Positions 55,501 to 62,982 of a stretch of 64,000 bases of DNA are shown here, piece by piece (position 1 is the first letter of the stretch; the number at the start of each line of letters is the position of its first letter). Both the position numbers and the translations under genes were made by a program. This DNA comes from Gemmatimonadales bacterium (GTDB lineage Bacteria; Gemmatimonadota; Gemmatimonadetes; Gemmatimonadales; GWC2-71-9). The notes beneath the pieces were generated by a model. That model saw only the letters and a list, made by a program, of their open reading frames with translations, was not told the origin of the DNA and did no database searches. The stretch spans positions 3,262 through 67,261 of the forward strand of contig JBQTHV010000109.1 of NCBI GenBank assembly GCA_052389555.1, read 5' to 3'.

Positions 55501-55682
55501 GGGCTATTGGCTATTGGCTATTGGCTATTGGCTATGGGCTATGGGCTATGGGCTATGGGCTATTGGAAACTGCACCGACCTGTAAGGCTGTTGACCAAAA
55601 GCCAATAGCTAATAGCCAATAGCCTCGGGCACCGAGCCGTAAGGCTGTTGACCAATAGCCAATAGCTAATAGCCAATAGCCT
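55501..55682. repeat. GGCTATT element with one left arm (about 9 units) and a duplicated right end
   Basis: Two copies of taaggctgttgaccaa(a/t)agccaatagctaatagccaatagcct. Confidence 0.92.
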
Positions 55683-55742
55683 TGTCAGCCCTAACCATAC
55701 GCCCAATCCCTGGGGATCGTTGGGGTTATGTTTCTGAGTCAC

Positions 55743-55784
55743 CGGCTCCGGCCCCCCGGCTCCGGCCCCCGGCCCCTGGCCCCT
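55743..55784. repeat. C-rich 7-mer-like array (CCCCYGG) upstream of a hypothetical gene
   Basis: ccggctccggccccccggctccggcccccggcccctggcccc. Confidence 0.55.
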
Positions 55785-55797
55785 TCCAGGAGGCACC

Positions 55798-56343
55798 ATG
55801 CCTGTGCGCTATCGGCTCGACCGGATCGAAGTGGCAGCCTTGGGATCCCGCCCCGCCTCCTGGACCTTCGCCGGAGAGGCCGTTCGCGGGATCGAGTGGA
55901 GCTACGTCGCGATCGACCGGAATCTCACCGGCAAGAATAGTTGGGAGTTCCTGGTGCGGGTGCCGGGCGATCCGAAGGGTCGCATCGAGGTAAGACCCCG
56001 CACCATCCCCTTGCATCGAGCGTGGGAAGAGCTGCCGGACCGCTCACTCACCTTTACTCAGGCGACCCGGGGAGCGTCGCGCGGGCGGTGGTATTGTCCC
56101 GTGGCGCTGGCCGATCCGACCGGCGAGAAATCCCGGGTCGTGGCCCGCCACGATGAGCGCAACCGGCTGCCCGGATGGTTCCGCGGTCTCACCCTTCGGC
56201 GCAAAGGGACGGTCAAGGCGACCAAGGGCACCGATCAGGACGCGCTGGTGGCGCTGGTCGCGCCGGACAACCATGCGGACATGATTCGATTATTCTTCGC
56301 TACGAAGGTCTGGGTTCTGAAAGAAGCCGTGGTACTGCGATAG
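55798..56343 (+). CDS. Hypothetical protein (181 aa)
   Basis: AGGAGG SD and normal codon usage. No family recognised. Confidence 0.65.
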   Translation: MPVRYRLDRIEVAALGSRPASWTFAGEAVRGIEWSYVAIDRNLTGKNSWEFLVRVPGDPKGRIEVRPRTIPLHRAWEELPDRSLTFTQATRGASRGRWYCPVALADPTGEKSRVVARHDERNRLPGWFRGLTLRRKGTVKATKGTDQDALVALVAPDNHADMIRLFFATKVWVLKEAVVLR

Positions 56344-56350
56344 CGAGCCA

Positions 56351-59919: not shown

Positions 59920-59934
59920 CTCTCACCTCTCACC
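59905..59934. repeat. 7-mer array CCTCTCA x4 at the ubiD/ubiA junction
   Basis: Supplies the ubiD TGA and the ubiA GTG. Confidence 0.85.
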
Positions 59935-61410
59935 GAGTCTGATGCCGAGCCGTTCCCACATTTCGTCCACCCTCCGCCTGGTCGCGGCGTCCATCTCGAT
60001 CTTCTGCGGCCACTCGCGAGTAAACCCTTCCTCAGGCCACTTCCGGGTGGCGTCGATCCCCATCTTGCTGCCATAGGTAAACCCGCGGCTCGCGTGATCG
60101 AGCACGTCGATCGGTCCCATGGTGAACCGCACATCCCGCTCGGGGTCAATGTGGTTGAGCGCCACCCACCACGCCTCCTCGGGGTCCTGCACGTTCACGT
60201 CGCGATCGACCACCACGATCACCTTGGCCAGCGACATGAGCCCCTGGCCCCACAGCGCGTTCATCACCTTGTAGGCCTGGCCGGGGAACTGCTTATCGAT
60301 CGAAACGAACACCAGGTTGTGGAAGATCCCGTACGCCGGCATGTGGTAATCCGCGATCTCGGGCACGGTAAGCCGAAGCAGCGGGAGGAAGATTCGCTCG
60401 GTCGCGTGACCGAGATAGTAGTCCTCCATCGGCGGCCGGCCCACCAGGGTCGCGGGATAGACCGGATTCCGGCGCGTCGTCACCGCGGTGACGTGCACCT
60501 TCGGGTAGTAGTCGGCCAACGAATAGAAGCCGGTATGGTCTCCGAAGGGTCCCTCGAGGACCAGCGGCTCGGCTGGATCGATATATCCCTCGATCACCAT
60601 CTCCGCTTCCGCGGGCACCGCCAGATCGGAGGTGACGGCGCGCGCCAGCTCCACCGGCCGCCTTCGCAGGAAGCCCGCAAAGAGAAACTCGTCGATAGTC
60701 GGCGGGAGCGGCGCCGAGCCTGCATAGATGCTCGCCGGGTCGCCCCCCAGGGCGATCACCACCGGCATGCGCTCCTTGCGCTCCGCCATCGCGCGCCAGT
60801 GTGCGGCCCCCACCTTATGGCGCTGCCAGTGCATGGCCAGCTCATTCTTCGAGAGCACCTGGATCCGGTAGAGGCCGACGTTGCGAATCCCGCGCTCGGG
60901 ATCCTCGGTGATCACGAGCGGCAGCGTGAGATAGCGGCCGCCATCACCGGGCCAGGTGACCAGGAAGGGGAACCGATCGAGATCGACCTCGTCACCCTCG
61001 AGCACGACCTCCTGACAGGGAGCGCGTCCACCCCGGGTCCTGGGCGGAAACTTGGCGAGCTCGGCGAGCTTGGGCAGCATGGCCAGTTTTTCCATGAGCC
61101 CCTTCGGCACCTTCATTTCGACGAGCTCGGCAATCCGGCCTCCGATGTCATCGAGCCGCTCGGTGCCGAGAGCAAGACAGATCCGCCGCATCGAGCCGAA
61201 CAGATTGATGGCGACGGGGATGGGACTTGCCGAGCCGTCTTCCCCGACCGGGCGCTCGAAGAGCAGCGCCGGCCCGCCGCCCGGCGATTTCATGCAGCGG
61301 TCGGCGATCTCGGCGATCTCCAGGCGGGTGGCGACCGGCTCCCTAACCCGCACGAGCTCGCCGGATCGCTCCAGCGCAGCGATGAAGTCCGGGAGGTTGT
61401 CGTGGACCAT
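59923..61410 (-). CDS. ubiD: UbiD-family menaquinone biosynthesis decarboxylase (MqnL-like)
   Basis: NVGLYR, MHWQRHK, EGPFGDHTGFYS, DVLDHAS, KMGIDATRKWPEEG. Confidence 0.92.
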   Translation of the reverse strand: MVHDNLPDFIAALERSGELVRVREPVATRLEIAEIADRCMKSPGGGPALLFERPVGEDGSASPIPVAINLFGSMRRICLALGTERLDDIGGRIAELVEMKVPKGLMEKLAMLPKLAELAKFPPRTRGGRAPCQEVVLEGDEVDLDRFPFLVTWPGDGGRYLTLPLVITEDPERGIRNVGLYRIQVLSKNELAMHWQRHKVGAAHWRAMAERKERMPVVIALGGDPASIYAGSAPLPPTIDEFLFAGFLRRRPVELARAVTSDLAVPAEAEMVIEGYIDPAEPLVLEGPFGDHTGFYSLADYYPKVHVTAVTTRRNPVYPATLVGRPPMEDYYLGHATERIFLPLLRLTVPEIADYHMPAYGIFHNLVFVSIDKQFPGQAYKVMNALWGQGLMSLAKVIVVVDRDVNVQDPEEAWWVALNHIDPERDVRFTMGPIDVLDHASRGFTYGSKMGIDATRKWPEEGFTREWPQKIEMDAATRRRVDEMWERLGIRLGER

Positions 61411-62226
61411 TCAGGACTCCGCCACTCGGGACTCGGGATTCGGGACTCGGGATTCGGGAATCTGCCCGGGAACCCCCGAGTGCCGAGTGCCGAGTCCCGA
61501 GTCCCGAGTCCCGACGTGGATCGCACAAATCCCGCCCGCGAGCAGCTCCCAGGTTACCGTGGTAAACCCGGCGGCCCGCATCCGGTGGGCGAGCTCGTCC
61601 GCAGTCGCAAACACGCCGACCGATGCTGGCAGCCACTGATAGGCGTTTCTATGTTTCGAGATCAGCCGTCCGATCCTCGGCAAGAGGTGCCGCAGATACC
61701 AGAGGTACAGGCCGCGGAGCGGGTTATGAGGCGGCGTGCTGAACTCGAGGATGACCAGGCGCGCGCCCGGCTTGAGGACCCGCGCCGCTTCCCGGAGGCC
61801 CGCATCGAGGTCCATCAGGTTCCGGATACCGAAGCCGACGGTCGCCCCATCGAAAACCGCAGGACCGAAGGGGAGCGCCAGGGCATCGCCGTTGGCGGGT
61901 ACCGCCCGGGGGGATTTTCCGCGCCCGCGCACCAGCATCGCCTGCACGAAATCGAGCGCGATCACGCGCCCGCCGAAAGCCGGCCGATTCCCCAGCTCGG
62001 CCGCGAGATCCATCGTGCCGGCGCAGAGATCGAGATACCGCCCGTCGGGTCGCGCTTCCCAGTTGAGCCGATCGATTGCCCGCTTGCGCCAGCGGCGGTC
62101 CAGATTCGCGCTCAGCAGGTGATTCAGCAGGTCGTAGCGCGGCGCGATCGCTCCGAAGATTTCCTGGACATAGGCCCGCTTGGTCACCCCGCCTGTGACC
62201 GGTAAGTCCCGCCCGGTGGCGAACAT
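61411..62226 (-). CDS. ubiE: UbiE/MenG methyltransferase with repeat-derived C-terminal extension
   Basis: F..IAPRYDLLNHLLS, LDLCAGT, FGIRN, LKPGARLVILEFS, YQWLPAS. Confidence 0.92.
   Translation of the reverse strand: MFATGRDLPVTGGVTKRAYVQEIFGAIAPRYDLLNHLLSANLDRRWRKRAIDRLNWEARPDGRYLDLCAGTMDLAAELGNRPAFGGRVIALDFVQAMLVRGRGKSPRAVPANGDALALPFGPAVFDGATVGFGIRNLMDLDAGLREAARVLKPGARLVILEFSTPPHNPLRGLYLWYLRHLLPRIGRLISKHRNAYQWLPASVGVFATADELAHRMRAAGFTTVTWELLAGGICAIHVGTRDSGLGTRHSGVPGQIPESRVPNPESRVAES
61415..61513. repeat. In-CDS inverted 7-mer element (ACTCGGG / CCCGAGT) forming the UbiE C-terminus
   Basis: Encodes GTRDSGLGTRHSGVPGQIPESRVPNPESRVAES. Confidence 0.92.
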
Positions 62227-62270
62227 AGCCGCCGAATGTACCCCGCTCGGAAGCCTCGTCGCAACCTGAG

Positions 62271-62885
62271 ATGAGCGATCCCTCAGGGCCAGTGAATCTC
62301 CAGCACGCGCCCGATCAGGAGATCGTGCGGCTCGCGCGCGAGGGAAGCGAAGCGGCGTACCGCGAGCTGATCCGCCGGTATCAGCGCCCAGTGTTCTCGC
62401 TCATCTATCGCATGGTTCGCGACCGGGAGCTGGCCGAAGACCTGGCGCAGGACACGTTCGTCAAAGTGATCAACGCTCTGAGCAGTTACCGGCCCGAGTT
62501 CAAGTTCTCGTCGTGGGTGTTCAAGATCGCCAACAACGTCGCGATCGATCAGCTGCGCCGCCGCGAGCTCGATACCCTTTCGCTGGAAGGATCACCTCAC
62601 GCGACCACGCAGGATCGGATCGAAGCGACGTCGCTGGAAGTCGCCGAACCGGGGGAAAACGCACTCGACGAGGTGGCGAACCGCGAGCTCGGCGGCACGA
62701 TCGAACGCGCGATCGCGAAGCTGAGGCCCGAATACCGGGCCTGCATTCTGCTGCGCCACGTCGAAGGGAGACCCTACGAGGAGATCGCGGAGATTCTCGA
62801 TCTCCCGTTGGGAACCGTGAAGACCTACATCCACCGCGCGCGACACGAGCTGCGGCGCGTGCTGGAACATCTGCGCAATGAATAG
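62271..62885 (+). CDS. ECF sigma factor (SigW/RpoE-like)
   Basis: DLAQDTF, FSSWVFKIA.N.AID, YEEIAEILDLPLGTVKTYIHRAR. Confidence 0.93.
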   Translation: MSDPSGPVNLQHAPDQEIVRLAREGSEAAYRELIRRYQRPVFSLIYRMVRDRELAEDLAQDTFVKVINALSSYRPEFKFSSWVFKIANNVAIDQLRRRELDTLSLEGSPHATTQDRIEATSLEVAEPGENALDEVANRELGGTIERAIAKLRPEYRACILLRHVEGRPYEEIAEILDLPLGTVKTYIHRARHELRRVLEHLRNE

Positions 62886-62982
62886 CTATTGGCTATTGAT
62901 GGCTATTGGCTATTGGCTATTGGAAACTGCCTTCACCCATAGGGCTGTTTTACCAATAGCCAATGACCAATAGCTAATAGCC
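62884..62982. repeat. Inverted 7-mer arrays (GGCTATT / AATAGCC) between the sigma and anti-sigma genes
   Basis: Inner ends tattggaaactgc .. agggctgttttaccaatagc. Confidence 0.9.

Follow-up and report, generated by a model that had tools for sequence, protein, structure and literature searches.

Here we describe a family of intergenic hairpins whose arms are tandem arrays of the heptamer GGCTATT, two members of which, elements A and B, lie in a 64,000-nt stretch (the window; positions 3262-67261 of contig C109) of the metagenome-assembled genome (MAG) of a Gemmatimonadales soil bacterium (G000; 3.2 Mb, 66.9% G+C, 202 contigs, 93.5% complete). Positions given without a contig name are those of the window. 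Element A (55502-55685) sits between divergent genes, one M14-peptidase-like and the other without assigned function. It reads (GGCTATT)4(GGCTATG)4GGCTATT, then GGAAACTGCACCGACCTGTAAGGCTGTTGACC, then CCAAAAGCC AATAGCT AATAGCC AATAGCC, after which the last 57 nt follow in a second copy. Element B (62884-62982) reads AGCTATT GGCTATT GAT (GGCTATT)3, then GGAAACTGCCTTCACCCATAGGGCTGTTTTACC, then CCAATAGCC AATGACC AATAGCT AATAGCC. It abuts an open reading frame (ORF) for an extracytoplasmic function (ECF) sigma factor (62271-62885), whose TAG stop codon (62883-62885) overlaps the first bases of the element; the protein ends in HLKQ in 11 relatives and in HLRNE in G000, where the stop is supplied at the edge of element B. 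Each element is predicted to fold into one long hairpin (A, DNA fold of 55495-55692, -61.6 kcal/mol, z = -9.3; B, RNA fold of 62878-62990, -50.5 kcal/mol, z = -7.7). In the minimum-energy fold of A, the first right arm pairs with the inner units of the left arm, and the second pairs with the outer (GGCTATT)4 of this unusually long left arm, so that the partial core between them bulges out. The tip of B is a 5-bp stem (GCCTT/AGGGC) closing a 7-nt loop. The coordinates of all parts are given in Table 1.

A first, sequence-only reading of the window had proposed that A and B share inner boundary sequence that independent slippage of the arrays could not have produced. Both carry GGAAACTGC and GGCTGTT(G)ACC. 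The string TATTGGAAACTGC is present without change at 55561-55573 and at 62918-62930, and AAGGCTGTTGACCAA (55585-55599) and AGGGCTGTTTTACCAA (62941-62956) run into the respective right arrays. This is far beyond chance: with up to two mismatches, TATTGGAAACTGC is matched three times in the window against 0.25 expected, a count that no shuffle reached, and 14-mers of GGCTATT are matched 30 times against 0 expected. The left and right arrays are reverse complements of each other, and the general form is 5'-(GGCTATT)n-core-(AATAGCC)m-3', with about five units per arm.

Across G000 we counted 106 clusters of GGCTATT arrays. These include 69 arm-core-arm hairpins and one element with two right arms, and in all 70 paired clusters the GGCTATT arm comes first, the reverse polarity being found in none. 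Short cores could be oriented in 43 elements (9-26 nt between the called arms; 25 in the plus and 18 in the minus orientation). Two were dropped, and the 41 cores of the final alignment, A1, each of about 32 nt, align to one consensus, GGAAACTGCCCTAACCCGGAGGGCTGTTGACC. The consensus folds into a single hairpin with a 7-nt apical loop, AACCCGG (-34.3 kcal/mol, z = -12); the core thus extends the stem down to this 7-nt loop. About 27 further hairpins with GGCTATT arms have longer, unrelated cores of 34-62 nt, among which at least two types recur. Hits of a covariance model of the core and inner arms (R1) are confined to a subset of the genomes in the genus of G000; element A, which belongs to the training set of the model, scores 68.1 bits. 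The genome-wide check of the core that the sequence-only reading had called for therefore yielded many further copies and, since the core is conserved, these copies are homologous and did not each arise by slippage, as had been argued from the two copies in the window.

Within this family A and B do not stand out. Judged from the alignment, the motifs they share, GGAAACTGC and GGCTGTTGACC, are the best-conserved flanks of the family core and are not special to the pair. Their cores are 73% identical, which places them at the 77th percentile of all family pairs (mean pairwise identity about 65%), and are about 81% (A) and 82% (B) identical to the family consensus. Pairs on the same contig are not clearly more alike than others (0.68 versus 0.65). 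We read A and B as ordinary, rather worn members of the family and not as a recent pair. A first right-arm unit AATAGCT is common to at least nine copies and marks a sub-lineage. Elsewhere in G000, the hairpins at C161:15900 and C188:17838 have cores that are 87.5% identical and near-identical flanks (..ttcaagatcttggt[c/g]accac..); the impression is of a gene region that was duplicated together with its hairpin.

The age of the sites was assessed in two sister species of G000, G005 and G021, which differ from it by about 20-25% in coding DNA and whose coding flanks are only about 70-84% identical to those of G000. We fetched 36 of their elements and placed the flanks in G000 by BLAST, which gave 31 distinct sites. 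At ten of the 31, G000 also has a GGCTATT hairpin, where about 0.8 would coincide by chance. At six it has a hairpin of another unit (AGCTATC at three, and CTGGACGG, AGTCATC and a 14-mer at one each), and at five it is empty or has a remnant, for instance GAGCTATAGCT or a single GGCTATG unit; the others are unassigned. Many of the sites are accordingly old, the same gene junctions being occupied in two sister species. Examples of the remnants are C52:5537-5584 and C182:12497-12553, where full hairpins of G005 face GAGCTATAGCT (one left and one right unit) or a lone GGCTATG in G000, which suggests near-complete collapse of the palindrome by deletion.

Although many sites are shared, their sequence follows the species. 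GGCTATT makes up 77% of the units in G000; in G005, GGCTATG is the commonest (44%, with 31% GGCTATT), and G021 has 58% GGCTATT, 19% GGCTATG and 11% GGCTACT. In each of the six orthologous pairs with short cores on both sides, the core in G000 resembles the consensus of its own genome (0.70-0.91) more closely than it does the core at the corresponding site (0.47-0.66). At some shared sites (C48, C25 and C69) the arms are the same and the cores differ between species in both length and sequence. The arms themselves are near-perfect arrays despite a divergence of the flanks at which neutral sequence should be scrambled. Both the dominant unit variant and the core consensus are thus species-specific. 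Element A provides a local case: the gene junction at which it lies carries, in G005, an array of (GGCTATG)4-6 and a GGCTG..AACCAA that we read as the decayed remnant of the 3' half of the core and the right arm. GGCTATG is rare in G000 (3% of units), and the block of it in the left arm of A matches the G005 counterpart, which points to inheritance of the site.

Taken together, it is rather probable, in our judgement, that A and B belong to one lineage-restricted family of intergenic array hairpins in which old sites are combined with concerted evolution of the copies, and that the doubled end of A is a one-off duplication. Concerted evolution is suggested by the old sites, by the species-wide shifts in unit and core, by the interchangeable cores between constant arms and by the occurrence of the core in both orientations; old shared sites with species-specific consensuses point to homogenisation between dispersed copies. 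It probably proceeds by gene conversion, a step that we infer rather than observe. The identical 35-60-bp arms would serve as homology for gene conversion or template switching between elements, slippage within the arrays would act alongside, and the core would travel as a passenger, homogenised, exchanged (at least three core types occur between the same arms) and found in either orientation. The sequence-only reading had spoken of a copied unit with defined ends. The homologous unit stands; many of its sites are old, however, and its similarity looks to have been kept by homogenisation more than by recent insertion.

Several observations weigh against this interpretation. No conversion event was caught directly: the sisters are too distant at 70-84% flank identity, and the Logan contigs, from a run (X1) that is probably of the source sample, end within the arms, so that flanks cannot be linked to cores from them. 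Only six ortholog comparisons have short cores on both sides. With a mean core identity of about 65%, homogenisation, if any, is weak or old. The six sites at which G000 has unrelated units are not explained by conversion within the family, and a mobile element that strongly prefers certain insertion sites could also produce shared sites. The orientation of the core is unrelated to the direction in which genes are transcribed (10 sense, 16 antisense), an observation that speaks against the core having a sequence-specific role in RNA, and gene positions in G000 come from our own crude codon-usage caller (3,002 genes, 93% coding).

An actively mobile, non-autonomous element, akin to a miniature transposable element with inverted repeats (MITE) or to a repetitive extragenic palindrome (REP) doublet forming a hairpin (REPIN), would account for the high copy number, the two orientations and the conserved core. 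Such an element would be moved in trans, have its own master copy in each species, which would account for the species-specific unit and core, and home to stop-proximal gaps or existing arrays; the sub-lineage marked by AATAGCT and the sites with hairpins of other units, as repeated hits on a hot spot, would fit. We consider it unlikely. In its favour, the gap between the sigma and anti-sigma genes that holds element B lacks an array in 11 relatives, where it is a bare gap of about 30 nt, and conversely the sites C15:54014 and C9:1539 are empty in G000 and carry a hairpin in G021 or G005. At the cleanest empty site no target-site duplication is visible (G000 C15:54014-54017 against G021 locus L051, with flanks about 20% diverged). 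Against it, the copies are not young (core identity about 65%), occupancy is shared between species at ten of 31 sites where chance would give about 0.8, and A retains the rare GGCTATG block of its G005 counterpart, which again speaks for inheritance. Nor was a suitable enzyme found in G000. The Y1 transposase of the IS200 and REP-associated tyrosine transposase (RAYT) type (PF01797) has no match in this 93.5% complete genome, and the same search was positive in six of 14 control genomes. The sole reverse transcriptase (C10:1152-1793, L091) is a group II intron maturase of the standard kind (TIGR04416, 393 bits), which also leaves a telomerase-like writer of arrays without a candidate. Lone GGCTATT arrays lie in compound arrays or at the ends of contigs, and in the sequence inspected none can be seen to bracket a gene (distant arm pairs were not searched for systematically, and the enzyme search covered two families).

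The junction at element B is variable in its own right. In G005 it carries (GGTGACA)4 and in G010 (AGAACYC)6, each together with about 30 nt held in common with G000. These extra nucleotides (CGTTTCA..TTT.TACGT..GAAAC; 62983-63030) are found in G000, G005:C68 (L020) and G010:C114 (L019), and directly 5' of them stand three different heptamer arrays, one per genome, the GGCTATT hairpin being that of G000; none is present in the 11 other relatives.

The short core also bears on a second oddity of the lineage. Its centre, at the tip of the hairpin, is CCTAACCCG, a 9-base word with 1,607 copies in G000 against 40 for the reversed control. The exact word is found in 18 of 43 short cores, where the next base is G in 12 of 18 instances, compared with 27.5% genome-wide (p = 6e-4). 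A and B lack it, reading CACCGACCT and CTTCACCCA, so that in them it was lost or never completed. In the loops of other hairpin families the word is rare, with the 8-mer CTAACCCG in 6 of 125. The arms and the inner stem (GGAAAC...GTTTCC) of G000 recur in G005 and G021, where the tips are mostly the palindromic CTCTTCCGGAAGAG; the word occurs in 3 of 20 cores in G005 and 1 of 13 in G021, genomes with 209 and 308 copies of the word, respectively. The bias towards G after the word, the palindromic tips of the sisters and their lower word load suggest that in the lineage of G000 an older ..TTCCGGAA.. tip came to be overwritten with the word. In a pattern search over one genome per GTDB species, a word-type core between GGCTATT arms was found in only two other Gemmatimonadales soil MAGs. 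Within the genus the word has 1,607 copies in G000, 412 in G017, 308 in G021, 209 in G005 and 75 in G010 (controls about 15-47), and its excess is absent in G001, G003, G015 and G025, the last from another family. G017 has the word at about nine times control and no hairpin with a GGCTATT core; G003 has hairpins of the unit GCTATTC and no excess of the word.

These data allow a reading in which selection maintains the core for a function, its tip showing CCTAACCCG to the protein that also reads the word genome-wide, or forming the site of a dimeric regulator, with the arms as mere stem. In its favour, the word, where exact, always lies at the tip, three species have conserved the inner stem (GGAAAC/GTT(T/GA)CC), and the frequency of the word in cores follows its genome-wide load (G000 above G021 and G005). 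We nevertheless hold it to be decidedly improbable as an account of the family: A and B have lost the word and kept their arms, G017 has the word without any family member, only about 1% of the words of G000 lie in these cores, those elsewhere show no hairpin context, and there is no orientation bias relative to genes. Selection on the tip cannot explain the roughly 27 hairpins with the same arms and unrelated 34-62-nt cores; it is possible for the word-bearing copies.

A bolder proposal, which we put forward as a long shot, is that hairpins and word are two faces of one process. The agent that writes or selects the word genome-wide, as a signal for uptake, recombination or repair, would also have overwritten the tips of an older palindromic repeat (..CTTCCGGAAG..) at dozens of old sites in this lineage, or a word-bearing copy would have spread by conversion through a transmission advantage. 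The tip, single-stranded on extrusion, would be a favoured site for the display and reading of the word. If so, the elements would be a handle for finding the word-reading protein, and arm-guided gene conversion would be what keeps dispersed array hairpins alike across the genome. We know of no description of concerted evolution by arm-guided gene conversion for bacterial intergenic repeats.

The doubled right end of A, also pointed out by the sequence-only reading, is real. Tandem Repeats Finder (TRF) reports a period of 57 nt (1.9 copies, 94% matches) at 55572-55682, the copies at 55572-55628 and 55629-55685 are identical at 52 of 57 positions, and the unique junction (55610-55633) is covered in the Logan contigs, an independent assembly, at a normal depth of about 40, against about 32 in the flanks. 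The 15 nt between the two right ends, taken at first for a different spacer, are not foreign: they are TCGG followed by GCACCGAGCCG, which agrees at nine of 11 positions with the segment GCACCGACCTG of the first core. Both cores of A have common departures from the family consensus, which marks them as sister copies made on the spot. We interpret the doubled end as a one-off local tandem duplication of 57 bp (the 3' part of the core and the right arm), with five later substitutions. Among the 70 paired elements of G000 it is the only one so built, and arm lengths are uncorrelated across the family (left versus right, rho = -0.08), so the second right arm reflects no general balancing rule.

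Serial insertion, or acquisition of a spacer at the end of the element in the manner of a CRISPR array, was suggested by the two right ends set apart by seemingly unlike sequence and could claim one exact match of the 15 nt within a gene of G000 (C54:44637), the only one in the genome, but with the spacer being duplicated core, the whole 57-nt unit doubled in a single element, no similarity on either side of the C54 match and no phage match (plasmid collections were not searched), it can be set aside almost entirely. CRISPR repeats measure about 23 to 50 nt and alternate with unique spacers of similar size, some of which match mobile DNA. The units here are contiguous and 7 nt long, with no interspersed spacers, and a CRISPR array was rejected.

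Genes were called on both sides of 66 elements; every one of these lies between genes, and most of them touch a stop codon. Fifty lie between tandem, 11 between convergent and five between divergent genes, a distribution no different from that of the genome baseline (p = 0.30). For tandem pairs, the usual finding is an outer end about -5 to +9 nt from the stop codon of the upstream gene; the following start is mostly 0-25 nt distant, though some gaps are larger. For convergent pairs, each end is -5 to +9 nt from a stop. Intrinsic termination was considered and rejected: no T tract follows the hairpin of A or B, a scan gave four sites against 4.0 expected with none at an outer end, and for A the reading is further weakened by its place between divergent genes. 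One would expect a perfect stem of 35-45 bp between cistrons to influence mRNA processing or stability, by analogy with REP elements, or to act on the DNA as a cruciform. The most likely role would be that of a very stable hairpin, in transcript or DNA, at cistron boundaries, which could protect mRNA 3' ends or be a processing site; alternatively, the elements could be largely selfish DNA tolerated only in gene gaps. A search of RNA runs found none that contains the locus. Whatever their role, they break short-read assemblies, and by supplying stop codons and altering C-termini, as for the ECF sigma factor here, they matter for the annotation of Gemmatimonadales MAGs.

The window holds further hairpins and arrays (Table 1). 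At the gathering scores of its families, Rfam 15 has a single match in the whole window, a tRNA at 19515-19596, and the third GGCTATT hairpin starts 6 nt further on; at the matching place G005 has a GGCTATG hairpin with a short core of the CCTTCCGGAAGG type (full match of the right flank, partial match of the left). At another tRNA 3' end, G005 (L081) has a GGCTATG hairpin and G000 only CTCTTTTCCCTTTTCAC (C36:30164-30181). Hairpins can thus adjoin tRNA 3' ends directly. At 57589-57682 and 37559-37695 the window has hairpins of the units AGCTATC and AGTCATC, respectively, where G021 has GGCTATT/GGCTACT hairpins (L088 and L090); the whole stem sequence therefore varies between species at one site and the hairpin persists. 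Downstream of A, an array of CCGGCTC/CGGCCCC at 55742-55783 lies just 5' of a start codon at 55798, and G005 has a (GTGAGAG)4-GTTTTTCC-(CTCTCAC)4 hairpin in its place. Lone GGCTATT arrays often open compound arrays of fixed order, (GGCTATT)n, (GCTCGGC)n, (TTCAC[T/G])n and (CTCTCAC)n, as at C23:27040, C28:22158, C28:24230, C31:29256 and C113:12342 and in the window at 44925-45035. These look like a second, modular repeat family of several heptamer types.

Table 1 Parts of elements A and B and other GGCTATT features of the window
Feature	Position	Strand	Description
Element A, left arm	55502..55566	+	(GGCTATT)4 (GGCTATG)4 GGCTATT GG; TRF 55502-55566, period 7, 9.3 copies
Element A, apical core	55565..55596	+	GGAAACTGCACCGACCTGTAAGGCTGTTGACC; row C109_58761+ of alignment A1; degenerate family core
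Element A, right arm 1	55595..55624	+	CCAAAAGCC AATAGCT AATAGCC AATAGCC; TRF 55595-55624
Element A, duplication copy 2	55629..55685	+	partial core GCACCGAGCCGTAAGGCTGTTGACC, then right arm 2 (55652-55681); copy 1 is 55572-55628
Element B, left arm	62884..62923	+	AGCTATT GGCTATT GAT (GGCTATT)3 GG
Element B, apical core	62922..62954	+	GGAAACTGCCTTCACCCATAGGGCTGTTTTACC; row C109_66142+ of alignment A1; degenerate family core
Element B, right arm	62953..62982	+	CCAATAGCC AATGACC AATAGCT AATAGCC; TRF 62952-62978; pairs with left arm
Third GGCTATT hairpin	19603..19717	+	directly after tRNA gene; core 46 nt, unrelated to short core
Fourth GGCTATT hairpin	32084..32204	+	core 34 nt; between convergent genes, touches both stop codons (-3 and -1 nt)
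Lone (AATAGCC)3 within compound array	44982..45021	+	after TCGGGAG-/GGGGAGT-type units, before GAATAGC units

Among known systems, the DNA uptake sequences of Neisseria (DUS) and Pasteurellaceae (USS) occur as inverted pairs in terminators. As there, a hyper-abundant short word is also found in hairpin-forming intergenic elements; unlike there, the tip holds a single copy of the word and not a stem-forming inverted pair, and 99% of the words lie outside the elements. Our search of the literature on repeats of Gemmatimonadetes and on short tandemly repeated repetitive (STRR) sequences found no description of the GGCTATT family. The STRR heptanucleotides of heterocystous cyanobacteria and the TAACTGA repeats of Beggiatoaceae (MacGregor 2015, PMC4679880) are likewise dispersed intergenic heptamers that adjoin start or stop codons in species-specific patterns. 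Almost all are direct arrays (of the 170 sets counted in the Beggiatoaceae genome, one is an indirect repeat; PMC4679880); they have no conserved-core hairpins, and they show an orientation bias towards start codons that is absent here.

With REPs and REPINs (Bertels & Rainey 2011, PMC3116915; Di Nocera et al. 2013, PMC3733652) the family shares high copy number, an extragenic position in operon gaps and between convergent genes, long palindromic hairpins in both orientations and a within-genome population with a consensus. In these respects it qualifies, with about 70 hairpins, 66 of 66 testable ones intergenic and cores in 25 plus and 18 minus orientations. Membership was rejected: a RAYT gene was not found in G000, and in place of the conserved 5'-terminal GTAG or CGTC of REP palindromes the outer ends read (T/A/G)(A/G)GGCTATT, with GTAGGCT in only about 6-7 of 70. 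Moreover, the arms here are tandem arrays of variable length as opposed to fixed palindromes of 20-40 nt, and many sites are shared between species.

Hairpins of inverted heptamer arrays are barely covered in the literature, and the published case that we found, the GGGAATC arrays of Xanthomonas campestris and X. axonopodis, is the closest precedent. These form 70-75 convergent inverted pairs per genome (Rehm et al. 2015, PMC4692102), which can fold into stem-loops or cruciforms, are about 90% intergenic and lie on average 28 nt after the upstream ORF; repeat lengths vary between species, which usually agree in whether a repeat is a single array or an inverted pair (PMC4692102). The GGCTATT family fits the same descriptive class, being made of tandem 7-nt arrays that are convergent, close together, intergenic and near the end of the upstream ORF, and in both systems convergent gene contexts exceed divergent ones (16% versus 7-8% in Xanthomonas; 11 versus 5 elements here). 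It differs in that its unit cannot form a G-quadruplex and in that it belongs to another phylum, Gemmatimonadota. No family-wide central core is described for Xanthomonas (PMC4692102), whereas 41 copies here share a 32-nt word-bearing apical module, and species-specific unit and core consensuses are documented at shared sites. What is new, then, is the conserved core in 41 copies, its word-bearing tip, by which the hairpins are linked to the hyper-abundant 9-mer of the lineage, and the evidence for species-specific homogenisation at shared sites.

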